From: Deltaproteobacteria bacterium
Lineage (GTDB): Bacteria; Bdellovibrionota; JAJCYS01
Assembly (NCBI GenBank): GCA_029262815.1
Contig: JAJCYS010000038.1
Coordinates: 15,182-79,181, forward strand
Length of the DNA stretch: 64,000 nt
Reading direction: 5' to 3'
The notes beneath the pieces are model-generated. The model ran no database searches. It saw only the letters and a program-made list of their open reading frames with translations, and had not been told where the DNA came from. The position numbers and the translations under genes are program-made. Of this stretch, positions 9,418 to 59,726 are shown piece after piece. Every line of letters starts with the position of its first letter. Position 1 is the first letter of the stretch.

Positions 9418-10125
9418 TTAGATATCTATTGTTTTGGGCAGTTCTTGTTTTTTTTCTTCAACCTTTAATTGATCAGGCCGGATGTATTTATAAGTCTTAA
9501 CAGATTTTTCGGGGTTGTAATGTTTTTGGACCCATTCTTCGATGTCCATTTCTTTTTGGTGTGGTTTATAAGATTTTATGATGGTTTCAAACGTACAAGT
9601 TCCTGTACATAGATGGCCAAACTTATGGGAAAAAGATTTTCTCGCTTCTTTGGCGGACTCACCGTGAATAATAATTCTTGCTAATGCGCTAGCAAAACTG
9701 GTTCGATCCGCACCAGCTTTACAATGAATGAGTACTATTTTTTTCTCAGCTTTCACTTTTTTGATGGCTTGAATTAAATCGATTAGTAACTTCTTGTTGG
9801 GAAATCCGCCTGTCGCATTGAGATATGGCTTTGCATCGCCGATATCAAAAAACATGTCATAATAATCGACACCCAATTTTTTGACGACTTTCTTCTCTTC
9901 TTCGTAGTAGGACTGACCTACTTTAACCCCGTTTAGGTTAATCACAGCTTGTACGTTGTTAATCGTTAAAACTTCTTCAAGTTTAGACGCGTCTAATTGA
10001 GCCGTACGAAGAATTTTATGAGGATGGCTGGGATCTCCAACTTGATGGATGTTATTACCGCATCCCGAAAGAGTAACGGCAGCAAATCCAAGATAAACCG
10101 AAACGGTTAGAATATTTGCATTCAT
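9418..10125 (-). CDS. lipoprotein Cys-based protein phosphatase (CX5R, PTP/dual-specificity-like)
   Basis: HCKAGADRTS P-loop; N-terminal signal peptide with lipobox-like LSGC. Confidence 0.65.
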   Translation of the reverse strand: MNANILTVSVYLGFAAVTLSGCGNNIHQVGDPSHPHKILRTAQLDASKLEEVLTINNVQAVINLNGVKVGQSYYEEEKKVVKKLGVDYYDMFFDIGDAKPYLNATGGFPNKKLLIDLIQAIKKVKAEKKIVLIHCKAGADRTSFASALARIIIHGESAKEARKSFSHKFGHLCTGTCTFETIIKSYKPHQKEMDIEEWVQKHYNPEKSVKTYKYIRPDQLKVEEKKQELPKTIDI

Positions 10126-10181
10126 GCCCTACATATCGGGCATAAATATATTTAGTTTAGAATTAATAAATATTTAGTTTT

Positions 10182-10335
10182 CAATAGGTGCCAAAAGGTA
10201 GCCGGGGAACCTAAGAGCTATTCCAAAAGGTAGCCGGGGAACCTAAGAGCTATTCAATAGGTGCCAAAAGGTAGCCGGGGAACCTAAGAGCTATTCAATA
10301 GGTGCCAAAAGGTAGCCGGGGAACCTAAGAGCTAG
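10182..10335. repeat. tandem array of four direct repeats (41, 32, 41, 41 bp), family A, core CCAAAAGGTAGCCGGGGAACCTAAGAGCTA
   Basis: Read directly: units at 10182-10222, 10223-10254 (truncated), 10255-10295, 10296-10335. The last unit abuts the stop codon (10336-10338) of the minus-strand gene. No spacers, so not CRISPR. Confidence 0.9.
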
Positions 10336-12198
10336 TCACTCTTCTTCATGAATTTCCACCCATTGAACTTCTTGAGGTTTCAGAAAACCATGTTTTATCA
10401 ATGCTTCTCTAATAACCTTTTCTACATCAGAGTCCCCATCGTCTCCACCTTCAAACTCTAATCGTTTTTTGAGCAGCTTCGCTTCCTCGTCACTCAACTT
10501 CGCCTTTGCTGCTTTATAGGCATAAGCGGCTATGAACCTCGTTGACCAATTCCTTTTAGTACTCAGCTTCGCTTCGTTCTTAAACTGTGACAACACATTA
10601 TGTGCATCCAGCGCTTCAGCGATGGCTCTCAGTACTTTTGGATCGCGTTCTTCCAATAATTGATTTATGAGGTGCTCTTTCTCTGTATCACCAAATTCTT
10701 TTGATACCCCATAAGCTTGTACTGTCGCTTCACGCAAGTATCTACTCGACGCGGTTAAGAAATCTGCATTTTTTAATTCAGGCATTGCATCATTGTTTTC
10801 AAGTACCTCTTTAATCAATTTAAATACTGTCGAATCGTCTTCAACTTTGAGTTGGTCAAGTAACCACGTTTTTTCATCCGAGGTCAAAGGCGATTTAGTT
10901 TTATATGCCAGCACTGCAGATAGTCGGATTTTCCAGCGGCTTGCGTTCAGAAATTCTTTCGTGCCATATTCTGGCTTTACATTATGCTTCTTAAGCGCTT
11001 GGAGAACAAGATCAATATAAATGTCTTTTTCCTCAGTTTTCAGCCGGTTCAATAAATACTTCTGATCAATTTCCACAAGTGGACTCACCACGTCTTCATA
11101 TGCGTAAATTGCAACAAATCGAATAGCCAGACTCTCTGAATTCAAATGGGTATGCGATTTAAATTCCGATAAAAGATTATGTTTTTTATACAGCTTCACA
11201 TAGGCGGCTACAACGTCAGTGTCTTCATCATATCCCAGAGTATCGTTTTCATCTTCCAGATATTTTTTAAGTAGGTTTTTCTCCTTTTCAGTCGGTTTTT
11301 TTCCCGCCTCATAAGTCTGCAGTGACAACAGTTTTAGATTCCTATTATCAGACCCAAGAAAAATCTTCGATTTCAACTCATCTACTGTGTGATGTTTTTT
11401 TATGGCAACAATAAGCACACCTGTAACATCAGAATCGTCTTCTTCATTCAATTGACTAATTAATTGAGTCTTTTCGTCAGGGGTGAGTGACTCAGCGTTT
11501 TCATACGTATGGGCTGCCGCTTGACGTACTTTCCACCTTTCAGAGCTCAAGTCTTCTTTATTTTTAAACGCAGCTAACGCCTTATGTTTCTTAAGCGTCT
11601 GGATGATAGCATCAGACACATAATCGTCCGATTCAACTTTAAATTGCGCAACAAGCGACACTATTTCTTCTGGCGTCAATGATTCTTTCTTCTCATATGT
11701 TCGAGCCGCAGCAAGTCGAAACGCACTCTTATCTGACTCAAGAGAAACCTGACTCATCATTTCTTTTGGTAACGCATCAAACTTAGCGAGAACTCTCAGA
11801 ATAAGATTCTTGAATCGTTCTTTTTTTTCTTGTTTTAACAAATTGAGGAATGCTTCTTTTTCTTTTGGGGTAATACTTTTGGCTCTCAAGTAACCCCTTG
11901 TCACTTCAAATCGAAGACGTGCATTTTTTGCAGTAAGATATTTGAGCTGATTCAAATTGATTTTGATCCCTTTATCCTTTAGGATACTGAAAACTTTTCT
12001 TATTGACTCTTCGTCAGGCGAACTGATTATCGTGTTTTCCAATCTCAAAATATCTTCGTTTGTTAGTTTACTCTTTTTGGACAGTTGCTCCACGCCTTGA
12101 TTAGATAATGAGGAACCACTCTGTGAGCCACAACCGCTACTAAATACAATCATGAGGGAGAAACAAAGAACTAAACCTATTTTCTTTTTAGACCACAT
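10336..12198 (-). CDS. secreted/lipoprotein with HEAT-like (PBS-lyase type) repeats
   Basis: 620 aa; signal peptide MWSKKKIGLVLCFSLMIVFSSGC; recurring blocks such as RWKVRQAAAHTYENAESLTPDEK...EEDDSDV; paralog of 12380-13267. Confidence 0.6.
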   Translation of the reverse strand: MWSKKKIGLVLCFSLMIVFSSGCGSQSGSSLSNQGVEQLSKKSKLTNEDILRLENTIISSPDEESIRKVFSILKDKGIKINLNQLKYLTAKNARLRFEVTRGYLRAKSITPKEKEAFLNLLKQEKKERFKNLILRVLAKFDALPKEMMSQVSLESDKSAFRLAAARTYEKKESLTPEEIVSLVAQFKVESDDYVSDAIIQTLKKHKALAAFKNKEDLSSERWKVRQAAAHTYENAESLTPDEKTQLISQLNEEDDSDVTGVLIVAIKKHHTVDELKSKIFLGSDNRNLKLLSLQTYEAGKKPTEKEKNLLKKYLEDENDTLGYDEDTDVVAAYVKLYKKHNLLSEFKSHTHLNSESLAIRFVAIYAYEDVVSPLVEIDQKYLLNRLKTEEKDIYIDLVLQALKKHNVKPEYGTKEFLNASRWKIRLSAVLAYKTKSPLTSDEKTWLLDQLKVEDDSTVFKLIKEVLENNDAMPELKNADFLTASSRYLREATVQAYGVSKEFGDTEKEHLINQLLEERDPKVLRAIAEALDAHNVLSQFKNEAKLSTKRNWSTRFIAAYAYKAAKAKLSDEEAKLLKKRLEFEGGDDGDSDVEKVIREALIKHGFLKPQEVQWVEIHEEE

Positions 12199-12292: not shown

Positions 12293-12341
12293 GGATTCCT
12301 GCCGAGTTTATCCCAGCTGAGGCTGGGGCAGTAATGACAAG
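12293..12341. repeat. family B-like element (GGATTCC...GTAATGACAAG)
   Basis: Resembles the GGATTCCC...GGGAATGACAGG elements at 14177 and 37324; lies directly 5' of a family A copy. Confidence 0.4.
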
Positions 12342-12347
12342 TTTGTA

Positions 12348-12383
12348 TGCCAAAAGGGTGACGGGGAACCTAAGTGTGGCTAG
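12348..12383. repeat. family A repeat, single copy (TGCCAAAAGGGTGACGGGGAACCTAAGTGTGGCTAG)
   Basis: Matches the 10182-10335 units; overlaps the stop codon of CDS 12380-13267. Confidence 0.7.
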
Positions 12384-13267
12384 TTCTGTTCTTCTTCTTC
12401 ATCAGATTCTGGTATCTTGACTCCATGTTTTTCCAACGCTTGACGAATTACATCCTTTACATCAGAAATCCCGTCCACATCTTCATCTTCAAATTTCAAT
12501 TGCTTTAGCAGAAGCGCTTTCTCATCTGGATCTGTTAAGAGTTTATCCGCTGCTTTATATGCATGGGCTGCCGCTCGTCGTATTCTCCAATTTTCAGAAG
12601 CTAAACTGTTTTCGGTTTTAAATTTGGCTAGCGCGTTAAGCTTTACCAGAACCAATAAAATAGTATCGGACACATCTCCGTCCATATCTATTTTATAATG
12701 AGCTATAAGTTTTTCTATCTCTTTCTTAGTAAGCGTTTCTTTCTTTTCGAAATTTTTAGCTGCGGCATATCGGAAGCTACCGTAATCTGACTCAAGAGAT
12801 ACTTGACTCATCATGTCTTTTGGAAACGCATCAAATTTTGCCAGTGTCCTCAGTATTAGGTCTTCAGATATATCATCTTTTTCTTCTTTAAATAATTTGA
12901 GGATAATCTTTTTTTCTTTTAACGTGATACTTTTAGATTCCTTGAAATATACTCTTATCGCCAAATTTCTTACCCTTTCATGTATTGCTTTAAGATACTT
13001 AAGTTGATTCAATTTAATTTTGATACCAGAATCAGTTAATATTTTGAATGCTTTTCCTATTATATTTTCATCAGGCGAACTGACTATCACGTTTTGTAAT
13101 CTTTGAACATCAGCATTTGATAATTCACTCTTTATAGAAATTTGCTTGATTTCTTGAATAGAAGGCAGAGGTAGACTTGAGGCGTCTTTTGTTTTGCTAC
13201 AACCGTAATTGAATATAAATATAAGGGGCAAGCAAAGAACTAAACCCATCTTCTTTTTAAACCTCAT
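12380..13267 (-). CDS. secreted/lipoprotein with HEAT-like repeats (shorter paralog)
   Basis: 295 aa; signal peptide MRFKKKMGLVLCLPLIFIFNYGC; NWRIRRAAAHAYKAADKLLTDPDEK block; 5' leader (CCGATAAGGCATAGATGTTARCAAAAGG) nearly identical to that of 10336-12198. Confidence 0.6.
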   Translation of the reverse strand: MRFKKKMGLVLCLPLIFIFNYGCSKTKDASSLPLPSIQEIKQISIKSELSNADVQRLQNVIVSSPDENIIGKAFKILTDSGIKIKLNQLKYLKAIHERVRNLAIRVYFKESKSITLKEKKIILKLFKEEKDDISEDLILRTLAKFDAFPKDMMSQVSLESDYGSFRYAAAKNFEKKETLTKKEIEKLIAHYKIDMDGDVSDTILLVLVKLNALAKFKTENSLASENWRIRRAAAHAYKAADKLLTDPDEKALLLKQLKFEDEDVDGISDVKDVIRQALEKHGVKIPESDEEEEQN

Positions 13268-13425
13268 ACATACCCTTTTGCTAACATCTATGCCTTATCG
13301 GAATTTAGCAACGAAAAATTAATATCAAAGTCTTTGTCATTCTACAACCTCAATCCCTACCTGAAGCACAACTGGTGGTTTCCCGCACGAATGTTAACGC
13401 CTGCGTTGGGAATAACGGAGCGGGG

Positions 13426-14130
13426 TTAAGTTAGGTATTGAGAAAAGGCCTGTTTAAGTTGCTGAGCACCTTCAGCCTCAATCGGCACCCCATGAGAAAC
13501 TATAATCCTTTCAATAGGCCATTCCAACATATGCTCTAATGATTTTCTAAATGCAGGCTTATCTTTGATTAACCATCGAATCACCCGCGTCGGTCCAAAC
13601 CGTCCATAGGCCCCATAAAATTTGAGCAACATCGCAGCGAAGAAATTCCCAGGTACCCTTTGAATATTAAATGCCAAATCTGTCAATATTAACGTTCGAG
13701 TCAATTTATGAAAAAAGACAACTTCACCCAACTTAGGGATTCCCTGAATCACATGTTGCGCGATATCTCCAGCCCATGCAGATTCAGGCTGTTCATTCAA
13801 TTGGCCATCAAACGTAAAGTCTTTTTTCTTATTGTCCAACCCTGGCGCAGAAAACACCTGTGCATTCGGATATGCCTTTTTATAACTAGGCACAAACACA
13901 TGATGATACCTATTGGGCGCAATGACATAAGCCACTTCACCCAGTGCATCTAATTCTTTTTTTATATCTTCAGTCAATCGAATGGGGGAATGAACCCACA
14001 TCATTCGACTTTCCCCCAACCTCACAACCGTCATACGCGACTTCGTAGGCATGCCCATCATTTTGAATAAACATGTGCCTACCCAGATGTTTTCCCCAAA
14101 TGAATGTAGTTTCATGCCCCCCCCCTGCAT
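13426..14130 (-). CDS. hypothetical protein (possibly DUF4336-like; recalled from memory, unverified)
   Basis: 234 aa ORF. Alternative start at 14115 (MKLHSF) preceded by a G-run. No catalytic motif recognised. Confidence 0.5.
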   Translation of the reverse strand: MQGGGMKLHSFGENIWVGTCLFKMMGMPTKSRMTVVRLGESRMMWVHSPIRLTEDIKKELDALGEVAYVIAPNRYHHVFVPSYKKAYPNAQVFSAPGLDNKKKDFTFDGQLNEQPESAWAGDIAQHVIQGIPKLGEVVFFHKLTRTLILTDLAFNIQRVPGNFFAAMLLKFYGAYGRFGPTRVIRWLIKDKPAFRKSLEHMLEWPIERIIVSHGVPIEAEGAQQLKQAFSQYLT

Positions 14131-27708: not shown

Positions 27709-28341
27709 ATGAGTCAAATTATTGGTTTTTTTCAACAAGGGGGGATGTTTATGATACCGATCGCCCTGTGTTTGCTATTTAGTGTGGTTATCAGTATTGA
27801 ACGGTTCTTCAAAGTCTATTACCTGTATAGCATCGACAGCACCTCCTTTATTTCCAAAGTTCAAAATCTGACCCTTCAAAAAAATTACGACCAAGCCATT
27901 TCGCTCTGCAACTCAAAGGAAACAGCTCTTTTACCCCGCGTTATTAAATCCGCACTTCAGGGAGCCAACGAAACAGAACACAAAGTAAACATCCGAATCG
28001 AAGAAGCTACGTTGGGCGTACTGCCGCTTATTGAAAAAAGACAATCCATCCTGCCGATGATTGCAAACGTTGCCACACTGCTCGGACTGCTCGGTACGAT
28101 TGTGGGCTTAATCGAAGCCTTTGGTGCGGTTGCATCAGCCGAACCTGCCTTAAAAGCTGAGCTGCTCACACAGTCCATTTCGATCGCGATGAACACAACT
28201 GCATTTGGATTGATTGTGGCGATTCCCACCAATATTTTCCACACCATCATTCAAGAGCGGGCTACAAAAATCATCGGAGATATCGATCAGTATGCCGTAC
28301 GTATTTCTCATTTATTAAGCTTGAGTAGTGCTAAAGGATAG
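27709..28341 (+). CDS. MotA/TolQ/ExbB-family proton channel
   Basis: 210 aa; three TM segments with LLGLLGTIVGLIEAF block typical of ExbB/TolQ. Confidence 0.75.
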   Translation: MSQIIGFFQQGGMFMIPIALCLLFSVVISIERFFKVYYLYSIDSTSFISKVQNLTLQKNYDQAISLCNSKETALLPRVIKSALQGANETEHKVNIRIEEATLGVLPLIEKRQSILPMIANVATLLGLLGTIVGLIEAFGAVASAEPALKAELLTQSISIAMNTTAFGLIVAIPTNIFHTIIQERATKIIGDIDQYAVRISHLLSLSSAKG

Positions 28342-28347
28342 AAGAGC

Positions 28348-28896
28348 ATGAGACCTCCCAGCCAGCGAAGTTATCGTCGCAAACAGGAACAGGAACTCGA
28401 ACTCACGCCGATGATGAGCCTTTTTGTTGGGCTGGTACCTTTTCTGTTAACGCTTGCCGTATTCACAAAAGTGACCTTAATCTCCCTGCCCTTGCCAAAA
28501 GTAGCCCAAACAGAACAAGAGATCCGAAAAGTAGAGAAGGAAAAATTCTATCTCAGGGTGTATATCATCGATCGTAAGACAAAAAACCAAGTCCGTGGGC
28601 GACCGGGATTCGTGGTAGATAGCAACGCCTTTCGCAAAGGACCCAAATTTCTGCCCCTAACCAAAGAGAAGTCGTACGACACAACGGGGCTCAACGCCGT
28701 AATGCTTGAGGTTAAGAAGAAGAATATCAAACGGAAAAATGTCATTATCATTTCGGGTAAATATGTAGGGTTTCAGGATTTGGTCAGGACTTTAGATGCG
28801 ACACGTGAAATTCTACCCGAATTGGCTGTGAACAATCCTGAACTTCTAGGTGTAGAGCTTTTTCCTGACGTTATTATGGATGAGGCAGGTAGTTAG
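28348..28896 (+). CDS. ExbD/TolR-family protein
   Basis: 182 aa; single N-terminal TM preceded by a LELTP motif. Confidence 0.6.
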   Translation: MRPPSQRSYRRKQEQELELTPMMSLFVGLVPFLLTLAVFTKVTLISLPLPKVAQTEQEIRKVEKEKFYLRVYIIDRKTKNQVRGRPGFVVDSNAFRKGPKFLPLTKEKSYDTTGLNAVMLEVKKKNIKRKNVIIISGKYVGFQDLVRTLDATREILPELAVNNPELLGVELFPDVIMDEAGS

Positions 28897-29422
28897 AGAT
28901 ATGAGTCGATTTAAATCGAAACGTCGCGCTCGAGCCCAAACGCCGCAGCTTCAAATCACATCACTCCTTGATATTATGACGGTACTGCTTTTCTTTTTGC
29001 TCAAAAGCTTTGGCACCACACCTGAATTGAACATTTCAAAAAATCTTGAATTACCTAAAAGTGTCAGCACACGACCTGCGGTTTATGCGTTGAATATCGC
29101 CGTTTCAAAAAACGAGATCTCAGTTGATGGAGAGTCGATTATCGCATTGCAAGGCATCAGCAAGGAGACAAAACGTTTGCCTCAAGCTGTATTTCGGAGA
29201 GATCCTGATTTGATTGCTCCGCTCTTTGAACTCTTGGCCAAAAAGAGAAGTTACGCCGCTAAACTTGCAAAACGCGATCCGCTTATAAAATTCAAAGGCG
29301 ACTGTATCATTCAAGCTGACCAAGACACGCCATTTCACATTATTAAAAAGGTGCTCTATACGGCTGGTCAGGCTGGGTATTTGATGCTCAATGTCGCGAC
29401 CTTGTCGACAAAAGATATTTAA
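28880..29422 (+). CDS. ExbD/TolR-family protein (second copy)
   Basis: ITSLLDIMTVLLFFLL TM block; likely start at MSRFKS (28901). Confidence 0.6.
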   Translation: MRQVVRDMSRFKSKRRARAQTPQLQITSLLDIMTVLLFFLLKSFGTTPELNISKNLELPKSVSTRPAVYALNIAVSKNEISVDGESIIALQGISKETKRLPQAVFRRDPDLIAPLFELLAKKRSYAAKLAKRDPLIKFKGDCIIQADQDTPFHIIKKVLYTAGQAGYLMLNVATLSTKDI

Positions 29423-29430
29423 GTAAAGTT

Positions 29431-29474
29431 GGATCCCCGCTCCTTCTTCGTCATCCCTGCCTTCGCAGGGATCC
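29431..29474. repeat. family B-type palindromic element (reverse orientation)
   Basis: GGATCCCCGC...ATCCCTGCCTTCGCAGGGATCC; hairpin ATCCCTG / CAGGGAT with CCTTCG loop. Confidence 0.6.
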
Positions 29475-29486
29475 ATTTCGACTTAC

Positions 29487-29537
29487 TGCCAAAAGGGTGC
29501 CGGGGAACCTTAGTGCTTTGGGGAACCTAAGTGCTTT
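29487..29537. repeat. family A repeat, 1.5 units (TGCCAAAAGGGTGCCGGGGAACCTTAGTGCTTTGGGGAACCTAAGTGCTTT)
   Basis: Same GGGGAACCTAAG core as the 10182-10335 array; here upstream of the plus-strand CDS 29605-31929. Confidence 0.7.
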
Positions 29538-29604: not shown

Positions 29605-31929
29605 ATGAGATTTCTGAATGTTTTAACTGTACTTTTTTTTATCGGCACGGCAATTGAATTTGAATCATGCAATCCGGCGCCCCCAGCGGACAACAATGTA
29701 GCTGCAGCTCCTGGAGTCGACGATTCAGTTGTTGACATAGAAACTCTAGGTGGTGGCGGAGGCGGTTCCGATAATCCGGATGACACAACTACGGTTTGCC
29801 AGGAAGGAGACATAGATGACAAAGTTGCTGCGGGCACTACAGCTCTATTGTCTGGTGAAGTCGACACAGGTGCGACACCTATAGTCGTTGTATGGCCAAC
29901 TAATGGAGATTCCTGGCTCAGCGGGTTTGAGACAAATACAGACCCTGGAATTCTATTCGATAGTGTAGATTTAACCGGTACATTTGGTGAACTGGGCGCT
30001 ACTGGCGGTACCGGGGACGATACGGATGCTAACTTTTTACTTCAAAATGGCTCTGACGACGTATTCTATCTTGAGGTTACAGGCCGTTTTTCGTCTGCTG
30101 TAGGGGACTACGAAGACGCAGCCCTATCTGCTGATGCAGATTTTATCGGAACTGTGCTTGATGGTACTGGAGATTTAAGTACCTGTTTTGAATATCCGAT
30201 TACAGATGGCACAACACCCAGCTTAACTAACCTAAATGGGGCAAATGATCATTGTAGCGACATCGTAGCCTCAGGGCCACCGACCGGTACTCGAGTTTGG
30301 TACGTAACGGTTGTCGATGATGTGTCAGCAACTTCCGGCACAGCTGCACGAAAACAAGTCGGCACATGTACGGGGGGAGCAGTATGTGTTTCTTTGACCT
30401 CTGAATCAGGTTTCAATTCTGAAGTAGAGGACGTCAATCAAGAAGGCACTTTTGTATTTGTTCGAAACGGCGATGGCACAGCTGCAGCACCCCTCACTGG
30501 CAATCAGTCCATCTATCGATTCACGGTTGCGTCACCTACAACCGCACCTGTCCGGCTCACAGACGGCACTCAAGGTGCTTGTACAGCTGCAAGATTATTC
30601 GGAGATTCGGCCGCCAGCTCTGCTGGTACTGTCCTCTTGACCGCATGTGGTGGCGATGTCTGGGGCATCACTGACCCCTTTGGTACAACACCCGGTTCAC
30701 CGATTTTGTTATTCGATCACGCCACGGTGGACATTGATGTTCTTGTAGGAAGTCCTATGGAATCAGACAAAACGGGACGAGGTTTCACACGTGTTGCCAT
30801 TCCGTCTATGACAACGCCTACAAAAAAATCTGTCATAGCCACCAATACCCCTGTTGGCCTGAATTGTAATGCCGGTGGTAGCGGCACAGCTGCCTTGTCT
30901 TCATTCAGCTTCCTTTGGAATCTGGGCACCGCGACCTCTGGTTTTTCAAGCCTACTCAGACTTGTCAGTGGCTATAATCTGGGTAATGTACGCGATAGTC
31001 ATCTGGGAAAAGATGCAAACGGGGATTTTATTCGATTTGTAGTGTACGATAGCGACCCACAACGTGTGTACGCTTACTTTATCGGAGACAATATTGGCTT
31101 TCCGTTTGTAGCAGTTCGAACCAGGAGTGATACGGACACCTTCCTTGGCATGCATGTCACCAAAGACTTTATTTATGTTTTAGCGAGCAACATGAAAGTG
31201 TACCGCCGATCCAACACAGCAAAATGGGGAACACTGGGAAAAATTGAAAATGAAGTCGATGACTGGACACTCGTCACAACCATGCCAATGGGCACAAAAT
31301 CAATTGTCGTAGACGATTCCGTAGCAGGCGCACTTGATATCTTTTACGATGGCGATAGCCTAATTGATTCAAATAGAGCTTTTCTAAAACAAGGGTATAC
31401 CGTCGCTGGCACGACGTTCACACCTGTCGGCGTGCCGATCGAAAAATATAATTCTGGCTCATCATCAAATACATTACACGTTGATGATCTAACAAAAGTG
31501 GGTTCTCGTAGAAGCCTTTTTGGCCGCGATGACAATGGTAGTATTGTTAAGCCTATCATTGCTGATGTGCTTGATCCCACAAAATCTGTGGGGGACATGA
31601 GTTCCTTTGCCGGACTATCCTCGTGCCCCGCTGGGACGATGCGTGAACTCGTAGCGACGACCGACCCTGCATACAAAAAACTTGGCGGCCCAGATCCATC
31701 ATCTGGCACGTTCACATTTCACGCAACTGTTCTGGCTCCCTGCGGAGGCATTGACGAAGTCTGGGGCATCAATACCTTTGATAGAGTTTCTACATTTACA
31801 TCGACCGACCCCACTAGTCACAACAATTTTGGCACCACACCTGCAGGATGTAAGATTAATGGCCTTGAAATTCCAGAACCCGTAACTGCTGCAACTAAAA
31901 TAGATTGCCCACCCTTTGATACGCCATAA
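29605..31929 (+). CDS. large secreted Gly/Thr/Asp-rich protein, unknown function
   Basis: Start at ATG 29605 (MRFLNVLTVLFFIGTAIEF, signal peptide) preceded by GGGGGAAAG. 774 aa with no recognised catalytic motif; Gly-run GGGGGG near N-terminus. Confidence 0.6.
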   Translation: MRFLNVLTVLFFIGTAIEFESCNPAPPADNNVAAAPGVDDSVVDIETLGGGGGGSDNPDDTTTVCQEGDIDDKVAAGTTALLSGEVDTGATPIVVVWPTNGDSWLSGFETNTDPGILFDSVDLTGTFGELGATGGTGDDTDANFLLQNGSDDVFYLEVTGRFSSAVGDYEDAALSADADFIGTVLDGTGDLSTCFEYPITDGTTPSLTNLNGANDHCSDIVASGPPTGTRVWYVTVVDDVSATSGTAARKQVGTCTGGAVCVSLTSESGFNSEVEDVNQEGTFVFVRNGDGTAAAPLTGNQSIYRFTVASPTTAPVRLTDGTQGACTAARLFGDSAASSAGTVLLTACGGDVWGITDPFGTTPGSPILLFDHATVDIDVLVGSPMESDKTGRGFTRVAIPSMTTPTKKSVIATNTPVGLNCNAGGSGTAALSSFSFLWNLGTATSGFSSLLRLVSGYNLGNVRDSHLGKDANGDFIRFVVYDSDPQRVYAYFIGDNIGFPFVAVRTRSDTDTFLGMHVTKDFIYVLASNMKVYRRSNTAKWGTLGKIENEVDDWTLVTTMPMGTKSIVVDDSVAGALDIFYDGDSLIDSNRAFLKQGYTVAGTTFTPVGVPIEKYNSGSSSNTLHVDDLTKVGSRRSLFGRDDNGSIVKPIIADVLDPTKSVGDMSSFAGLSSCPAGTMRELVATTDPAYKKLGGPDPSSGTFTFHATVLAPCGGIDEVWGINTFDRVSTFTSTDPTSHNNFGTTPAGCKINGLEIPEPVTAATKIDCPPFDTP

Positions 31930-34290: not shown

Positions 34291-34467
34291 GAGAATCACG
34301 CAGCCATCGGTTGATAGCTGCGTGAAACAGCCTCTCCATTCCCAGTAGGTTCCACTCCCAATTAGGGGTTATATCAAAAAATAATTTTTGACGCCATAAG
34401 AGAATGATAATCTAGGATTTGTTCTATTTAGGGGGAAATCATTAAGCGCTTACCCAATTGGGGTTAT

Positions 34468-37386: not shown

Positions 37387-37665
37387 TTATTCAGGCCATT
37401 CTACGAGAAGTTCATTCTCAGCTAGATAACCCGTTTGCAATCGAATGACCCGCTCTCGATACCGTCTATCATGCTTGAAGATTTGGATGGTGTGCTGAAG
37501 TGCCTCAAGCTCTTGCTTAAGCAACACCAGCTCCTGATCAAATTTTTTCTTCTTTTGATACAAAGTCCAAAGTGTCTGCACACCCTTTGATTCAAAATAA
37601 GAAATAGTCCCTACAGCTGAGACCACGATTCCCACACACACACTATGTATTAAAAAACGTCTCAC
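37387..37665 (-). CDS. FtsB/DivIC-like small coiled-coil membrane protein
   Basis: 92 aa; N-terminal TM, central coiled coil, C-terminal RERVIRLQTGYLAENELLV resembling the FtsB C-terminal block. Confidence 0.5.
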   Translation of the reverse strand: MRRFLIHSVCVGIVVSAVGTISYFESKGVQTLWTLYQKKKKFDQELVLLKQELEALQHTIQIFKHDRRYRERVIRLQTGYLAENELLVEWPE

Positions 37666-38078
37666 CGCTTAGATGTTCGCTCCGTTGCAATACTAAATTT
37701 CGTTACCTTATTGCGTTGTAATATATCAAAAATCTTGACCACTATACCATGGGGGGTGGCTTTGTCCGCTTCGATTAATAATTGCTTCTCAGTCAAGCTC
37801 GGCATATTTTTGATCGTTGTTTCTAGCTCTTGAGCGGTAATCGGTTTTGATCGCCAATAAATTTGGCTTTTTTCATCAATCGAAATCACCAACGGCACAC
37901 TTTCCCCCGTTCCTTTTTGCATACTGGTCTTCGGCAGATCAATCTGGAGCGGGTTATGTTTGATGAATGTAGTAGACACCATAAAAAAGATTAACAATAA
38001 AAACACCACATCAATGAGCGGTGTCAAATCAATCGAAGGCACCTCTTCAGAAACCGATTGTTCATCAAATTTGATCAT
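37662..38078 (-). CDS. ExbD/TolR-family protein
   Basis: IDLTPLIDVVFLLLIFFMV canonical ExbD/TolR motif; 138 aa. Confidence 0.8.
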   Translation of the reverse strand: MIKFDEQSVSEEVPSIDLTPLIDVVFLLLIFFMVSTTFIKHNPLQIDLPKTSMQKGTGESVPLVISIDEKSQIYWRSKPITAQELETTIKNMPSLTEKQLLIEADKATPHGIVVKIFDILQRNKVTKFSIATERTSKR

Positions 38079-38700
38079 GTCGCTTCTCTAAGAACAGGGT
38101 TTCGTACACGTTATCTAACTCTGATTCAATCGCGGTCATAATCGTCAAAGATCGATTTCGAATCACTTTATGAGCCACAAATGTTGGAATCGCAACCAAC
38201 AATCCAGCGATCGTAGTCAACAAAGCTTCAGATATCCCCCCCGCTAAGTGGCTTGCATTTCCTAACCCATGGGTATTAATCGTCTGAAAGACATGCATCA
38301 TCCCAAGCACCGTACCCAACAACCCCAAAAGAGGTGCAATACTGGCAACCGTCGAAAGCATATCCACACCACGCATCAATTGCTTTTGGACCATCGTCAT
38401 CGGCCCACGCATCCTTTCAGCGGTTTCTTTGGATCCGTGTGATTGATACTCCAACATTTTTAACACGAGATAACTCACCGGACGGTTCGAATGTTTAAGA
38501 CGCCCGATCACTTCATTTGCCTGATCAGAACCTAAATGCTTCAACTCATTAAGCAACGACTTAGGCAAATGATACCCATTTCGTAAATACACCAAACGTT
38601 CCAAAAAAACGGCCAGTGAAACCACAGAAATTAACAAAATAACCCCAAGGACAGGCCCGCCTTGTTCGAATAACGCTACCCAATCAATTGTCATAATCAA
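38065..38700 (-). CDS. MotA/TolQ/ExbB-family proton channel
   Basis: 211 aa; IAPLLGLLGTVLGM block. Confidence 0.8.
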   Translation of the reverse strand: MIMTIDWVALFEQGGPVLGVILLISVVSLAVFLERLVYLRNGYHLPKSLLNELKHLGSDQANEVIGRLKHSNRPVSYLVLKMLEYQSHGSKETAERMRGPMTMVQKQLMRGVDMLSTVASIAPLLGLLGTVLGMMHVFQTINTHGLGNASHLAGGISEALLTTIAGLLVAIPTFVAHKVIRNRSLTIMTAIESELDNVYETLFLEKRHDQI

Positions 38701-47927: not shown

Positions 47928-48431
47928 ATGAATTTAAAAGTTTTATCAGTCGCGTTGGTCGCAAGTTTTTTGGTTGTTACAGCGTGCAGCAGCAGCAAAT
48001 CACCTAAGGGCAAAAGTGATGCCGCAAGTGTTTCTATGTCAATTTCAGCAAAAAACAATAAATTCGAATTGAATGTTGATAAATTTAAGATTGAAGCTTT
48101 GAAGGAAGTCAAAAATACAGATGCTATGAAAGCGCTTAAAGATCTAAACGGTAGCTTCTCTATCGCACGTAAGGCAGAGAATGACATCACAAGTGGCAAA
48201 TGGGTTCATACGGATGGTGACAAAGTACATTCAATTGCATTCACCAACGAAAACAATGTCTGGACATTCGCTAATGAAATCACTGGCGTCAAAGCGGACC
48301 ATGCGATGGCTATCTGGGCAAAACAAAAATCTACCATTACAGCTACAAAAGATGGCGGATTCACCATGTCTTTGACTTTGGCTGACAAAGACACTAAAAA
48401 CGTAACCGTTTCTGTACCGTTTAAGAAGTAA
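47928..48431 (+). CDS. lipoprotein, unknown function
   Basis: RBS AGAGGAGGAAACT before ATG; MNLKVLSVALVASFLVVTACSSS lipobox. Confidence 0.6.
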   Translation: MNLKVLSVALVASFLVVTACSSSKSPKGKSDAASVSMSISAKNNKFELNVDKFKIEALKEVKNTDAMKALKDLNGSFSIARKAENDITSGKWVHTDGDKVHSIAFTNENNVWTFANEITGVKADHAMAIWAKQKSTITATKDGGFTMSLTLADKDTKNVTVSVPFKK

Positions 48432-48462
48432 GTACTAACCTACCCAACTGTAGGTCAAAAAA

Positions 48463-48497
48463 ACCTGGCGTCATTTAATTGGCGTCAGGTTTTTTTA
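48463..48497 (+). terminator. intrinsic terminator (stem with G-U wobbles, T7 tract)
   Basis: ACCTGGCGTCA ... TGGCGTCAGGT followed by TTTTTTT; A-tract upstream. Confidence 0.5.
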
Positions 48498-48605
48498 TTT
48501 GCTCCTCCACAGTGTTCTTTATTGACCTACGGCCTCCACCCTGCTTGGTTTAAATATGGTATTATGGTACTGTGGGAGCTGATTTTAGAGCCGGAGGGTA
48601 GTCAT

Positions 48606-49238
48606 ATGCGTCGGGGAATTCTTTTTTTTACACTTATAGCTGCATGTTTTGCAGGATGCAAATCGGATGTTGAAAAACGCCAAAAGTTGGATGAGTTCAT
48701 GCTCTCCATCACATCAAAAGCTTATATCTTCAAAGGACTGACTGTAACCAAGACTGTTAAGTCAAAAGAAGTGAGAACAGATGGCAAAACCTGGCTGGCA
48801 TATTTTACAGACAAGGTCTTTCCGAACGTTCCAGATGATGTGGAAAGAGATCTTAGGCTGATACTTGATAACAAAGACAAATTCGTAGGATCAGAGTTCA
48901 AACTAGGTGCCGCTGCGTGGCGATATACTCGAAACTCAGAAAAATTCCCTCTCGAAAAAAATGGCATGATTGAGTGGAAACGTGCTGATGGGGGGAGCTT
49001 ATTTAGACCTGATTATTTACAAAACGAAACATATTTTTCATTTTTTGGCCCTTTCGGTACAGGGACAGTTGCCAAAGACGCTGAGTTAGAGGACTACGAA
49101 AAGCCTCTTATTCGTTTTTTTCAAAAAAAGAAACTAGAAGTCACTGCTGAGGACAACAAGCAAGAAAAACTCAAGCTTAATTATTACATAGAAGGCATTG
49201 TTGCTTTCTCTCTCAGCTTTGAGCAAAAGAAAGAGTAA
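48606..49238 (+). CDS. lipoprotein, unknown function
   Basis: Start at ATG 48606 (MRRGILFFTLIAACFAGC) with GGAGGG upstream; the ORF-track start at 48522 is an extension. Confidence 0.6.
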   Translation: MRRGILFFTLIAACFAGCKSDVEKRQKLDEFMLSITSKAYIFKGLTVTKTVKSKEVRTDGKTWLAYFTDKVFPNVPDDVERDLRLILDNKDKFVGSEFKLGAAAWRYTRNSEKFPLEKNGMIEWKRADGGSLFRPDYLQNETYFSFFGPFGTGTVAKDAELEDYEKPLIRFFQKKKLEVTAEDNKQEKLKLNYYIEGIVAFSLSFEQKKE

Positions 49239-49265
49239 ACCATCATCAGAAGAGGAGGACATCTC

Positions 49266-50132
49266 ATGAGATATAGCCGATTTTATTGCCTTCTGGCATG
49301 TTGCATGGTGCTTACAAGCTGCACACGTAACAACACCGAACCGACTGCGAAGTTCTTATCTGTCCTATTTACCTCACATGCGGCACTGCTAAATGCAACC
49401 AAAACGCCAAGCGCTGAGAATGATAAAAATTTAAAATTTTTTAGAATGACACATGGTCGATATTTTGGGAATGAGATGGAAACATTCGCAAAATTTGATG
49501 CTATCTACAAAGGGGAACTTTATTGGCTGTTCAGTCAGGGACCTGATCGTGAAACATACATTTGGATGGTGTACAAACTGCCTGAAGGCATGCCCTCAAC
49601 TCTACAGACAAAAAAAGATGAAAAAGATAAGAAGAAGGATGAAAAAGATAAGGAAAAAGAGGTTGATCCCAAAAAACCACTTGTCGGCTGCTCGCAATTT
49701 ATGATGTCGATTGAAACGACATACGAAGGCGGATTGGCCTATGCCTATGATACTGAGTTGCCCACTATTAGCATGGGGCCTTGGATACAAATGGATTATT
49801 CCGGGGAAAAGCTGGCTATCAAAAAGTTAAGCACAAAATACATTAATTCGTTCTTTACGCTTATCCAGCATGAGAGTGGAAGCATCAAAGCACGTTGGCA
49901 GAGTGACAGCTCTATAGCAAGAATCAAAATATCCCGCGTTAGACCCGTAGAGCCCTATGCCTATGTTGATTTAGTTCCAGCTGAACCAACTGCATACATT
50001 AAGGATGCGCTAAGGAAGAATGTTAGATACACGTTTTTGAAACACACGATAAAAAAATCAATTAAAAAGAAAGATGAGAAGGAAGACACTGAAAAAGATA
50101 AAAAAGACAACAAGGAAACCAAAGAGGATTAG
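49266..50132 (+). CDS. lipoprotein with Lys/Asp/Glu low-complexity segments
   Basis: MRYSRFYCLLACCMVLTSC lipobox; KKDEKDKKKDEKDKEKE internal and KKKDEKEDTEKDKKDNKETKED C-terminal tracts. Confidence 0.6.
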   Translation: MRYSRFYCLLACCMVLTSCTRNNTEPTAKFLSVLFTSHAALLNATKTPSAENDKNLKFFRMTHGRYFGNEMETFAKFDAIYKGELYWLFSQGPDRETYIWMVYKLPEGMPSTLQTKKDEKDKKKDEKDKEKEVDPKKPLVGCSQFMMSIETTYEGGLAYAYDTELPTISMGPWIQMDYSGEKLAIKKLSTKYINSFFTLIQHESGSIKARWQSDSSIARIKISRVRPVEPYAYVDLVPAEPTAYIKDALRKNVRYTFLKHTIKKSIKKKDEKEDTEKDKKDNKETKED

Positions 50133-50135
50133 ACC

Positions 50136-50702
50136 ATGAAATTTCTGATCACTGCCTGTGTGTACAGCATCTTCATCTTTGGAAGTATCGGCTGTAAATC
50201 CAAAAATCCTGCGGATTTAAAACGAACAATCGAAAGTGGGCGTCAATTCTATGAATTGGTGGGCGTCAGCAGTCTTGATTCTGGGTATAAAGATTTACGC
50301 AAAGAAGTCAGTTTCTGGCACTTTGGCCCTAAACGGTTGACAATTCTTTTGAACAAAGCGACACAAGAAGCCACAAAACCAGCAACAGTTGAACGACCTG
50401 ATGGGCTTTTTTATGGGCCGCTCAGTGCATTCAAAAAAATCAAGACTTCTGATCGATTGCTAGCGGGGTCAGACAGATTGAAGGGCAGAACATTAAGACT
50501 CAAAGAGTGGCCCCAGCAAATGAAGGCTTTTATCATGCGTCAGCAAGCAGATGGTAGCCTAAAAAAAGACGTTGAGCTGACATTCAAAAAAGTGGATTTA
50601 CCGAGTGCGAAATTTTCTGTGATTTGGCCGGATCATCTGAAGGCTCCGGAGCCTTTGAAGCCCAAAGAACAAAAGCTGCAACCCATCTCCTCCAAAAAGT
50701 AG
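50136..50702 (+). CDS. lipoprotein, unknown function
   Basis: MKFLITACVYSIFIFGSIGC lipobox; 188 aa. Confidence 0.6.
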   Translation: MKFLITACVYSIFIFGSIGCKSKNPADLKRTIESGRQFYELVGVSSLDSGYKDLRKEVSFWHFGPKRLTILLNKATQEATKPATVERPDGLFYGPLSAFKKIKTSDRLLAGSDRLKGRTLRLKEWPQQMKAFIMRQQADGSLKKDVELTFKKVDLPSAKFSVIWPDHLKAPEPLKPKEQKLQPISSKK

Positions 50703-50731
50703 ACGGATCGCAGCTTTTTGAGTTCAAACTA

Positions 50732-52078
50732 TTATTTTTTCCTCCAATCTTTCCATTTGTTTTTCCAATAGTCTTTGGTCTGCTCCAGCGCACCTTTTTC
50801 TTGTTCTTTAACTTTTGGTTTTAACCCATACTGACGATTAACCTCATTTAAAGTTTTGTTATATTCTGCATTTAACTCATTGATCTCCAGCTGAAAATCC
50901 TGCTTATCTTCAAGAGTAAGGGCGGGTTTCACGTCTTTCTTTTGTCTCTGATTAAATTCGTTCACTTTTTCAAGATATGCTTTTTGTTGTTTTTTACTCT
51001 TTTCTTCAAGTTTAGCAAACGCTTCATCACCTATGTACTTATCACTTTGACTGCTACTTTTGTCATCTTCTTCGGCACTCTTCTCTTGCGAGTTACCATC
51101 CTGTGATTTGCTAGAGTCGTCTTGTTGTTTAGTTTCGCCCTCTTGGGAATTGCCATCATCATTTGATTGGTTGTCGTCTTCTTTAGTTTCTTCAGATTTA
51201 CTATCATCAACTTGTTTTACAGTCTTTTGAACAGGCCCTTTAACAATCGGCTTCCCTTTGCTTAGCAGCTGACCTTTTTTATTAATGGTTACGTCATTTA
51301 TATCCACCGCTTGAAATCCAACTTCCATCGTAAACTGCACGGTTACCGTGCTCGCTTCAGTTACTTTTGCAGCTGCTCGAATAAACCCTTCATTTTTAGT
51401 TGGTGTAAATATAAGTTCAGGCACACGGGGACAAATCTGAGTAAATGAGCATTTCAATGTTACATCTAAATTTTCTTCGTAAGGTTTCCGAACGATGAGC
51501 TCCTCTTTCGCATTTTCCATATCCAAGTGAGTCGGCAATGGACGAATCGGTCCACTCCAAATCAACCCATTAATGGTATCGCCATTTTTGATCTCATATG
51601 GTGAGACCCAAGGATTTTTTGCATCTCGTTTTTCTGCAATAAAATCAACAAACGTACCTTTCTCTTGCTCAGTATCCCAATAAAACATCCGTATTTTGAA
51701 AGCCCCTAGTCCTTCTTTAGGAAAAAAGTACACAAATTTACCGTTCAATGTCGTCTCAGGCTTGCCCTTATACTGGAATGGTTCTCCTAGGAATGACTTA
51801 ACACCCTTATCGACCGCTGCCTGTGCCCTCGTTTTAATAAACGCATAATGATCACTAACCACAGTCCCTTTTAGCTCCTCAGGTAGAGGTACAAACCATT
51901 TATCTGTGTTCTTTTGAGTTAATTCCTCTTTGGTGACCTTTACAACATCTTCTTTCTTCAGCACCTGCATCAGCTTTTTATTAAACTCTTCTTCCTTGAG
52001 AGGAACGCCGCAGCCAACAAACACCAAAATACATACAATTGCAATAAAAAATTCTTGTTTTTTCATATATTTCAACAT
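50732..52078 (-). CDS. lipoprotein with acidic low-complexity linker, unknown function
   Basis: Start at 52078 (MLKYMKKQEFFIAIVCILVFVGC) preceded by AAAGAGGTG; acidic Ser/Asp/Gln-rich linker then Lys-rich coiled-coil-like tail. Confidence 0.6.
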   Translation of the reverse strand: MLKYMKKQEFFIAIVCILVFVGCGVPLKEEEFNKKLMQVLKKEDVVKVTKEELTQKNTDKWFVPLPEELKGTVVSDHYAFIKTRAQAAVDKGVKSFLGEPFQYKGKPETTLNGKFVYFFPKEGLGAFKIRMFYWDTEQEKGTFVDFIAEKRDAKNPWVSPYEIKNGDTINGLIWSGPIRPLPTHLDMENAKEELIVRKPYEENLDVTLKCSFTQICPRVPELIFTPTKNEGFIRAAAKVTEASTVTVQFTMEVGFQAVDINDVTINKKGQLLSKGKPIVKGPVQKTVKQVDDSKSEETKEDDNQSNDDGNSQEGETKQQDDSSKSQDGNSQEKSAEEDDKSSSQSDKYIGDEAFAKLEEKSKKQQKAYLEKVNEFNQRQKKDVKPALTLEDKQDFQLEINELNAEYNKTLNEVNRQYGLKPKVKEQEKGALEQTKDYWKNKWKDWRKK

Positions 52079-52294
52079 GTTACACCTCTTTAGGTTGCGA
52101 AAACTTCTTTTCAGTTGACCATAAAAAATAAGTTTAAGCAATTTAAAAAACACTAATCGTTTTATCGGTTATTTAGCTAATAGTTTTAACAGTTTATGCA
52201 TCTATTTAATATTTAATGAATTTATATACTTACACTAAATATTTTATTTATAAATGTCGATCAGACGGTGAGGTTTCATGAAGGAGGGGGGAAG

Positions 52295-53023
52295 ATGAGC
52301 TATTTCAACAACCGTTTGGTGGTGTGTGCGTTTTTGGGCGCGGGGCTGCTGATATTGCCTGCCCAAAGCAATGCGTTCCAACCTAATGACGCTGGCCTTG
52401 CAACACCCGACAACTTTGATCAGATGCCGATTCAGTACCACAACGGCTCACAAGCAAGCCCCTATGACGCTCCTCAAGGTTATGACATGCCCCAACGAGA
52501 TCTCCCTGCAGCTCCTGAGATTCCGCGACAGCCCGCTCAATTCCCGACTGCGCCTAACTTGAACGCCCCCCAAGATATTCAACAGGGCTATGATGCTCCG
52601 CCGCAGTACAACAGCTACCCACAGAATCAAAACCCGTACCCTGATGTTCAACGAGATCCCAACAGTGATTATATGGATAAACAGCCCCCCCCTAATATGC
52701 AACAAGGATATGACTCACTGCCTCAAAGTAACAGCTACCCTCAAACTCAAAACCCCTATCCAGATGTTCAACGAGACCCTGAATCACTCAATGATTCTGA
52801 TCCGTTTGATCAAAATCAATATGACCAAAACCCTCAAGATTATCCTTCTGAATTCATTGATTCAGGAGAACCAGACGCAAATCTACCTCAGGCGGATCGA
52901 CTACCTCTGCAAACACCTTTTGAGCCCCCACAGATTGATGATTTCTCACCTGAGCAAGAGTTACAAAATCCACAACCCTATCCTGAATTTGACCAACAAC
53001 AGCTGGATGACATTCGACAGTAA
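52295..53023 (+). CDS. secreted Pro/Gln/Tyr/Asp-rich repeat protein
   Basis: Start at ATG 52295 after GAAGGAGGGGGG; signal peptide ...LPAQSNA; internal direct repeat QQGYDxxPQxNSYPQxQNPYPDVQRDP occurs twice. Confidence 0.6.
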   Translation: MSYFNNRLVVCAFLGAGLLILPAQSNAFQPNDAGLATPDNFDQMPIQYHNGSQASPYDAPQGYDMPQRDLPAAPEIPRQPAQFPTAPNLNAPQDIQQGYDAPPQYNSYPQNQNPYPDVQRDPNSDYMDKQPPPNMQQGYDSLPQSNSYPQTQNPYPDVQRDPESLNDSDPFDQNQYDQNPQDYPSEFIDSGEPDANLPQADRLPLQTPFEPPQIDDFSPEQELQNPQPYPEFDQQQLDDIRQ

Positions 53024-59556: not shown

Positions 59557-59567
59557 GGTAAAAAGAC

Positions 59568-59603
59568 AAAAAAAAATCCAAGGGATAAACCCTCGGATTT
59601 TTT
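59568..59603 (-). terminator. intrinsic terminator of the 5S rRNA gene
   Basis: On minus-strand RNA: AUCCGAGGG-UUUAU-CCCUUGGAU (9-bp stem with one G-U) followed by U9. Confidence 0.65.
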
Positions 59604-59607
59604 TAAA

Positions 59608-59721
59608 GTTGCGCTGTACTACTCTCCCACAGGGCTACCCCTGCAGTACCATCGTCGCTGAGGAGCTTAACTGCCGAGTTCGGAATGGGATCGGGTGTTT
59701 CCTCCTTGCTATCAGGACAAC
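59608..59721 (-). rRNA. rrf: 5S ribosomal RNA (solitary)
   Basis: Minus-strand sequence ...CCGAUCCCAUUCCGAACUCGGCAGUUAAGCUCCUCAGCGACGAUGGUACUGCAGGGGUAGCCCUGUGGGAGAGUAGUACAGCGCAAC aligns block-for-block with bacterial 5S (CCGAACUC, GUUAAGC, CGAUGGUACUG, GGGAGAGUAG). Ends are +/-5 nt. Confidence 0.85.
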
Positions 59722-59726
59722 GAAAT

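Follow-up and report, generated by a model that had tools for sequence, protein, structure and literature searches.

A short non-palindromic intergenic repeat with a four-unit tandem array beside a HEAT-repeat lipoprotein gene

What has been repeated four times between the stop codon of a lipoprotein gene and the start of the next gene, and does the same sequence stand elsewhere for reasons other than gene duplication? The question is raised by an intergenic gap in the stretch of DNA analysed here (64 kb, the window). A sequence-only reading had placed a tandem array at 10182–10335 and proposed that related copies were dispersed over other sites. The array itself is real and has four units, and its limits are corrected to 10180 and 10334. 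Four mismatch-free copies of a 30-nt core, CCAAAAGGTAGCCGGGGAACCTAAGAGCTA, start at 10191, 10223, 10264 and 10305 on the plus strand, head to tail as described. Tandem Repeats Finder reports a period of 41, 3.8 copies and 98% matches. In 100 shuffles of the sequence CCAAAAGGTAGCCGGGGAACCTAAGAGCTA was matched 0 times at up to three mismatches, and none is expected by chance.

The repeating block of this minisatellite is 41 nt long and consists of the 11-nt spacer TTCAATAGGTG followed by the core. Units 1 (10180–10220), 3 (10253–10293) and 4 (10294–10334) are complete, while unit 2 (10221–10252) is 32 nt long, lacks 9 nt (CAATAGGTG) and retains TT as its spacer. The deletion is bounded on both sides by CAA. 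As the first core is also preceded by TTCAATAGGTG, the array represents a single copy that, along with the 11 nt on its left, was amplified where it stood. It is a local tandem amplification of a single block and not a cluster of four insertions. Since the cores are 100% identical, the amplification is either recent or under homogenisation. A CRISPR was also considered for this array. CRISPR repeats of 23–55 nt alternate with unique spacers of similar length; the candidate was rejected, as the spacers here are only 2 or 11 nt long and the 11-nt spacers are identical to one another.

The array lies between two genes of the minus strand. Its last base is 10334, which is followed by one base (G 10335) and then by the stop codon of a 620-aa HEAT-repeat lipoprotein gene (10336–12198; TCA at 10336–10338, TGA on the minus strand). 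It had been said to end exactly at this stop codon; it does adjoin the codon, with the single G intervening. The HEAT-repeat lipoprotein label is borne out by a HEAT_2 match of 33.5 bits against a cut-off of 27.7 bits and by the lipobox FSSGC. On the other side, downstream of the array, a 235-aa lipoprotein is encoded at 9418–10125 (minus strand). Its matches to the tyrosine-phosphatase (PTP) family are all sub-threshold. It carries the cysteine-phosphatase motif HCKAGADRTS, which we take to fit the PTP catalytic motif, and the name phosphatase gene holds. The gap between the two genes, bounded by position 10125 where the 235-aa gene starts, measures 210 nt. Most of it is covered by the array, which thus fills the upstream region of the phosphatase gene as had been noted, and the amplification lengthens the spacer before this gene from about 95 to 210 nt.

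One further feature of the spacer was followed. Ten of the 11 positions of TTCAATAGGTG are complementary to CACCCATTGAA, which lies at 10357–10367 within the 3′-terminal part of the 620-aa gene. The spacers of three of the four units (10180–10190, 10253–10263 and 10294–10304) could thus pair in mRNA with this end of the coding region. The inverted match is probably due to chance, as about 0.2–0.3 such matches are estimated for the region and the paralogous gene described below has none.

A profile was built from the units and the whole 64-kb window was scanned with it on both strands. Matches were obtained at 10189–10334 (the four units), 12348–12379 and 29487–29519, together with a half unit at 29520–29536. 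The six full units scored E = 2e-10 to 3e-9 and the half unit 0.004; the next match had E = 1.3. The 12-mer GGGGAACCTAAG gave a concordant picture, with six exact sites and a seventh containing one mismatch, all inside the same three intergenic gaps. Inspection of a match to GGAACCTA at 34346 (minus strand) showed that it is no copy of the element. The element thus occurs at three loci in the window, always in non-coding DNA. It is about 30–35 bp long, with the consensus TGCCAAAAGG-KWGM-CGGGGAACCTWAGWGCTWT, and at each of the three loci it begins with a sharp left edge, TGCC. In the profile alignment conservation is bipartite: TGCCAAAAGG and CGGGGAACCTWAG flank four variable bases.

The second locus carries a single copy, TGCCAAAAGGGTGACGGGGAACCTAAGTGTGGCTA, at 12348–12382 on the plus strand (profile E = 3.2e-9), which shares 23 of 30 positions with the array core. 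It had been reported at 12348–12383 as overlapping the stop codon of a paralogous gene, and this is what was found. The right end of the copy, GCTAG, holds the stop codon (CTA at 12380–12382, TAG on the minus strand) of a 295-aa HEAT lipoprotein gene (12380–13267, minus strand), which protein alignment identifies as a tandem paralogue of the 620-aa gene. The two proteins are 52% identical over the first 281 aa and their C-termini align too; the shorter one resembles the longer without its internal repeats. About 100 nt upstream of the two start codons are likewise homologous. At the 3′ ends the minus strands read GAAGAAGAGTGA-CTAGCTCTTAGGTTCCCC versus GAAGAACAGAA-CTAGCCACACTTAGGTTCCCC. Here the similarity resumes at the last codons and continues past the stop codon into the element, and GCTAG at the stop codon is common to both loci. 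Because the similarity runs through C-terminus, stop codon and element, the array and the 12348 copy occupy paralogous positions, and duplication of the gene explains both of them. The match of 23 of 30 core positions resembles the divergence of the DNA neighbouring the HEAT genes, which is 72–75% identical between the paralogues, and so nothing in this pair speaks for selection on the element. The demonstrable local effects of the array and the 12348 copy are limited to supplying or overlapping the stop codons of the HEAT genes and to the longer spacer before the phosphatase gene.

Two observations on these genes may be added. A word-index protein search with the 620-aa HEAT protein returned only the protein itself and missed even the 295-aa paralogue; an overload of low-complexity candidates is the probable reason. 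A compound hairpin, CTGCC-GAGTTTATC-CCAGC-TGAG-GCTGG-GGCAG, occupies 12300–12332 (plus strand), with the 12348 copy on one side and the conserved region upstream of the 620-aa gene on the other; it may serve the 295-aa paralogue as terminator.

A degenerate copy that had been suggested at 13413–13436 did not survive. It is absent among the profile matches listed up to an E limit of 1000, and its local alignment to the 12348 copy scores 10–13 where shuffled sequence averages 12–14. It was accordingly rejected as a member of the family.

The third locus decides whether the element is anything other than a duplicated 3′ untranslated region. A full copy, TGCCAAAAGGGTGCCGGGGAACCTTAGTGCTTT, is present at 29487–29519 (plus strand, profile E = 2.7e-10), followed directly by the half unit GGGGAACCTAAGTGCTTT at 29520–29537 (plus strand, E = 0.0044). 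Together they make 1.5 units in the gap between an exbD-like gene and a 774-aa orphan lipoprotein gene (29605–31929), which starts 68 nt downstream of the copy; both genes are on the plus strand. The opposite orientation of this copy relative to its flanking genes, which had been pointed out, is therefore correct, as are its coordinates. By manual count, 25 of its first 27 positions are those of the 12348 copy, and each of the two is farther from the array. Alignment comparison found the flanks of the three loci unrelated. Had the copies been confined to the duplicated gene family, a duplicated 3′ end would have sufficed; the intergenic region that holds the 29487 copy is unrelated, so that such a duplication is not the whole story. 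The description of the copies as dispersed nevertheless stands in part only, since 29487 is one independent locus while the 12348 copy and the array are paralogous and the 13413 copy is not real. With two of the three loci related by duplication, the terms dispersed and family, and the idea of copying to a new site, all rest on one locus.

The right half of the 29487 element is itself tandemly duplicated: an 18-nt segment, GGGGAACCTWAGTGCTTT, occurs twice (Tandem Repeats Finder: period 18, 2.0 copies, 94% matches). Two of the three loci, the array and 29487, have therefore undergone independent local duplications, and these differ in register. The same word-index search gave only the protein itself when the 774-aa lipoprotein was the query, a result to be read with the known HEAT paralogue that this search missed.

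A long imperfect hairpin at 29420–29485 (plus strand) begins at the exbD stop codon, and the 29487 element stands just after it. The hairpin has an inner stem ATCCCTGC/GCAGGGAT and outer arms of 21 nt, and it probably acts as a terminator despite having no T-run. Between its left arm, GGATCCCCG, and the adjoining repeat's CGGGGAACC core, 8 of 9 positions are complementary.

At what level might such an element act? Its mixed orientation had been taken to argue for DNA and against a strand-specific RNA. The orientation relative to the flanking genes is indeed mixed, and the DNA level remains the more economical view. All copies lie on the plus strand of the window, however, which weakens the argument. 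A plus-strand transcript carrying the motif at every locus would be compatible with the sequence, and the orientation argument is reasonable without being decisive.

An RNA motif has therefore to be weighed, located either in the 3′ untranslated or intercistronic part of the HEAT operon on the minus strand or in plus-strand transcripts, and bound by a protein or small RNA. The element stands directly behind both HEAT stop codons, and all copies share one absolute strand. There is no consensus sigma-70 promoter or terminator between the 620-aa and phosphatase genes, so that the array probably lies within a polycistronic mRNA. The difficulty is that the sense transcript at 29487 carries the opposite strand of the element from that at the HEAT loci, that no terminator follows any copy on the plus strand, and that neither strand offers a stable or shared structure. 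Folding of the array and of single units on both strands gave z-scores of −1.3 to +0.8 against dinucleotide-preserving shuffles. Rfam searched over the whole window returned 5S rRNA as its only match and no family for the element, and permissive Rfam scans of two loci gave a best E of at least 0.55, far under the gathering scores. With folding no better than that of shuffles on either strand and no Rfam family, the idea of an RNA structure was dropped, and we consider a strand-specific RNA motif of any kind improbable.

A coding role was considered as well. The frame AKRV(T/P)GNLS is open at 12348 and 29487 and is closed by TAG in the array, which contains no ORF of at least 20 aa; the candidate was rejected.

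The same tests bear on the proposal that the element is REP- or MITE-like. REP and BIME elements are built on an imperfect palindrome of 20–40 nt that forms a stable stem-loop, occur in high copy number and are associated with a RAYT transposase, while MITEs are recognised by terminal inverted repeats and target-site duplications. In the comparison with REP, single units and the array folded on either strand at z −0.5 to +0.8, no better than shuffles. No internal inverted repeat or palindrome was found in the element, and no terminal inverted repeats were seen at any of the three loci. The direct repeats that flank the loci measure only 5–8 nt, are imperfect and are inconsistently placed, so that no convincing target-site duplication was seen either. 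Lacking a fold, a palindrome and terminal inverted repeats, the element is without the defining features of REP and MITE, and the comparison was abandoned.

Could it still be the footprint of a mobile element or of recombination, for instance one terminal repeat of an insertion sequence standing alone, or a site of attachment or recombination left near gene ends? Insertion-sequence termini are typically about 30–35 nt long, which is the length observed, and the sharp left edge with its TG start at all loci would suit such an origin. The copy directly after each HEAT gene also gives a superficial likeness to a gene cassette with its recombination site. Yet every copy is on the plus strand and has no inverted partner in the window, and the 64 kb contain no transposase, integrase or recombinase. 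The integron attC site was rejected for related reasons. Its position 3′ of ORFs would fit, but there is no attC-type palindrome and no integrase in the window, and GGGGAAC and GTTCCCC, as read from the sequence of the element, fail the attC core patterns GTTRRRY and RYYYAAC. A footprint of this kind seems to us quite unlikely.

Promoter-like features within the element were examined in the same manner. Three forms of core promoter come into question: a sigma-54 promoter (−24/−12) on the minus strand, an ECF-type −35 element (GGAAC) on the plus strand and a sigma-70 −35 element (TTGGCA) on the minus strand. Sigma-54 promoters have GG at −24 and GC at −12 in the spacing TGGCAC-N5-TTGCW. The reverse complement of the 29487 copy, GGCACCCTTTTGGCA, has the corresponding GG-N10-GC spacing, and GGAAC and TTGGCA are kept in nearly all units. 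The sigma-54 resemblance fails because the essential GG is not conserved: the 12348 copy has GT instead and the array has GGCTA as its box, and in array unit 2 the GC is lost as well. In addition, the most conserved block, CGGGGAACCTWAG, would fall outside the −24/−12 region, and at 29487 the promoter would fire antisense into exbD and away from any gene. The −35-like motifs have no conserved −10 partner, since the flanks of the loci are unrelated, and a consensus scan finds no promoter in the gaps at these loci. A core promoter is thus a very remote prospect.

The main rival is a duplex cis-regulatory site, an operator or upstream activating sequence, bound in either orientation by a regulator of lipoprotein genes. 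All three loci lie 55–210 nt upstream of predicted lipoprotein genes, a circumstance that fits a regulatory site as well and counts against the reading we prefer. Measured to the centres of the elements, the distance is 81–195 nt for the start at 10125, about 166 nt for that at 12198 and 79–102 nt for that at 29605. A regulatory site would need no fold, its sequence would be kept even as its orientation relative to the gene varied between loci, as is the case here, and the bipartite conservation of TGCCAAAAGG and CGGGGAACCTWAG around four variable bases would suit it. In the array, such sites would be multiplied ahead of the phosphatase gene. On closer view the association with lipoprotein genes is weak. 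About 10 of the 54 genes in the window encode lipoproteins and the other seven are without the element; any intergenic gap between same-strand genes is upstream of something; the 295-aa paralogue has no upstream copy; and two of the three loci are not independent. Nor is there a regulator gene nearby, and 93% identity over 27 nt with sharp edges would be unusually high and long for the sites of one regulator. On this sequence evidence a regulator-binding site is possible and would be the least unlikely of the rivals, the footprint, RNA-motif and promoter readings being less likely than it, yet we still regard it as unlikely.

Our preferred reading is that of a lineage-specific, non-palindromic short intergenic repeat that has expanded by slippage into a minisatellite and that acts, if at all, at the level of DNA; we give it about an even chance of being right. 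That unrelated loci share some 30 nt at high identity and with sharp edges speaks for copying of DNA and against convergence of binding sites. In this mechanism at least one copying event, whether transposition, templated repair or gene conversion, would have carried the sequence to an unrelated site. The element would be prone to replication slippage or unequal recombination. At the array the 41-bp block (the element with 11 bp of left flank) was tandemly amplified before one unit lost 9 bp. The element would work as duplex DNA and not as folded RNA, either as a protein-recognition site or as a repeat that is passive or selfish. In favour of the preferred reading, neither a transposase or integrase nor a DNA-binding regulator was found in the 64-kb window; against it, no copying mechanism was identified. 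A more specific proposal can be put forward as a long shot: a putative bipartite site, read in either orientation by a DNA-binding protein that would be a regulator of surface lipoprotein genes, or else a nicking or recombination enzyme that spreads the hairpin-less 30-bp unit and provokes its tandem duplications at two of the three loci.

How does a lineage-specific repeat of this kind compare with families already described? The MIRU-type interspersed minisatellites (MIRUs) of Mycobacterium tuberculosis are 46–101 bp long, occupy about 40 loci, are oriented with operons and contain small ORFs that overlap the flanking genes. The present element shares with them tandem units of tens of bp that lie in same-strand gene gaps, against neighbouring stop codons and at several loci; with a period of 41 nt between two minus-strand genes, the array falls within units of 40–100 bp in a same-strand gap. 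It differs in its 41-nt unit, its three loci, its mixed orientation and its lack of any ORF of at least 20 aa, and resemblance to MIRUs in sequence would not be expected. For a MIRU-type unit present at several loci, variation in copy number is expected. The MIRUs of Mycobacterium tuberculosis have been described as minisatellites (PMC3635867).

BrickBuilt of Porphyromonas gingivalis has a 23-nt unit repeated without spacers, leader and tail modules and small inverted-repeat ends, and occurs in 19 copies per genome (PMC4596501). Like it, the element is species-specific and strictly intergenic, with a short tandem unit, a limited host range and possible promoter or regulatory effects on its neighbours. 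In contrast to BrickBuilt, neither leader nor tail modules nor inverted ends were seen in it, and what has been amplified is a single block that includes the flank. The pneumococcal BOX, RUP and SPRITE repeats and the REP/BIME elements are intergenic and confined to one species or its close relatives, and what defines them is extensive secondary structure or a palindrome, along with a high copy number. In BOX the number of tandem copies of an internal module varies, and repeats of this group often lie beside stop codons and are co-transcribed with their neighbours (PMC3049150, PMC3184786). A small, intergenic, interspersed repeat of restricted range with a tandem module resembles these families; it departs from them in that it does not fold and has three loci in the window. 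Arrays of regulator sites, such as direct-repeat operators and iterons, offer another likeness, being non-palindromic, bipartite, usable in either orientation and tandem upstream of a gene. The element is longer and more uniform than these, and no cognate protein, replication gene or regulator gene is nearby. It therefore belongs to the class of species-specific small interspersed repeats or minisatellites, outside any named family.

External searches were in keeping with a narrow distribution. These scans needed an exact match to the pattern, so that diverged relatives would be missed. Among genome representatives (one per prokaryotic species) 11 single pattern matches were obtained in unrelated taxa, a number near the 17 or so estimated by chance, and the two that were read both lay in unrelated sequence. 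The JGI metagenomes gave three matches in near-identical sequences, apparently of one ABC-transporter gene, and viral contigs gave four unrelated ones. Similarity searches of plasmid and phage collections yielded no match to the element, and its sequence strings were not found in the literature. The external pattern matches are taken to be chance occurrences, and several that were read stand in ordinary sequence. Relatives in which the element might be followed are few. The best non-self match of the TrkH protein has 60% identity and comes from a metagenome (L019), the next being Desulfuromonadales-like at about 45–49%. The L019 contig, the nearest relative, contains no copy of the element and no synteny past trkAH. 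The lineage is barely sampled and has almost no sequenced relatives.

As it stands, the element is a minor species-specific repeat with minisatellite expansion, of a kind common in bacterial genomes. Should the element prove abundant genome-wide, it would be a small interspersed repeat without the hairpin or inverted ends of REP, MITE and BOX, and the question would become how it spread. The array, for its part, would offer a marker of variable repeat number ready for use, and it might act as a switch of the phosphatase gene downstream.

The surroundings are otherwise those of an ordinary core chromosome, with genes for fatty-acid synthesis, glyA, nusB, trkAH, murCB, mreC-mrdA-rodA, lon and fadJ. 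Several other features of the window deserve mention. Five consecutive predicted lipoprotein genes at 47928–52153 belong to no Pfam family and have no upstream copy of the element. Two separate ExbB/ExbD-type gene sets are present, at 27709–29422 (with two tandem exbD-like genes) and at 37662–38700. A 251-aa ORF contains, at 52566–52779 (plus strand), a pair of 94-nt direct repeats with 77% identity and a separation of 120 nt; the ORF product appears proline/glutamine-rich and has no family match, and the repeats are an internal duplication of coding sequence. Unlinked 5S rRNA genes are unusual in bacteria. A solitary one is found at 59606–59722 (minus strand), no 23S rRNA being detected in the window, and it is flanked by a divergent protein gene upstream and a strong bidirectional terminator downstream (59563–59600).
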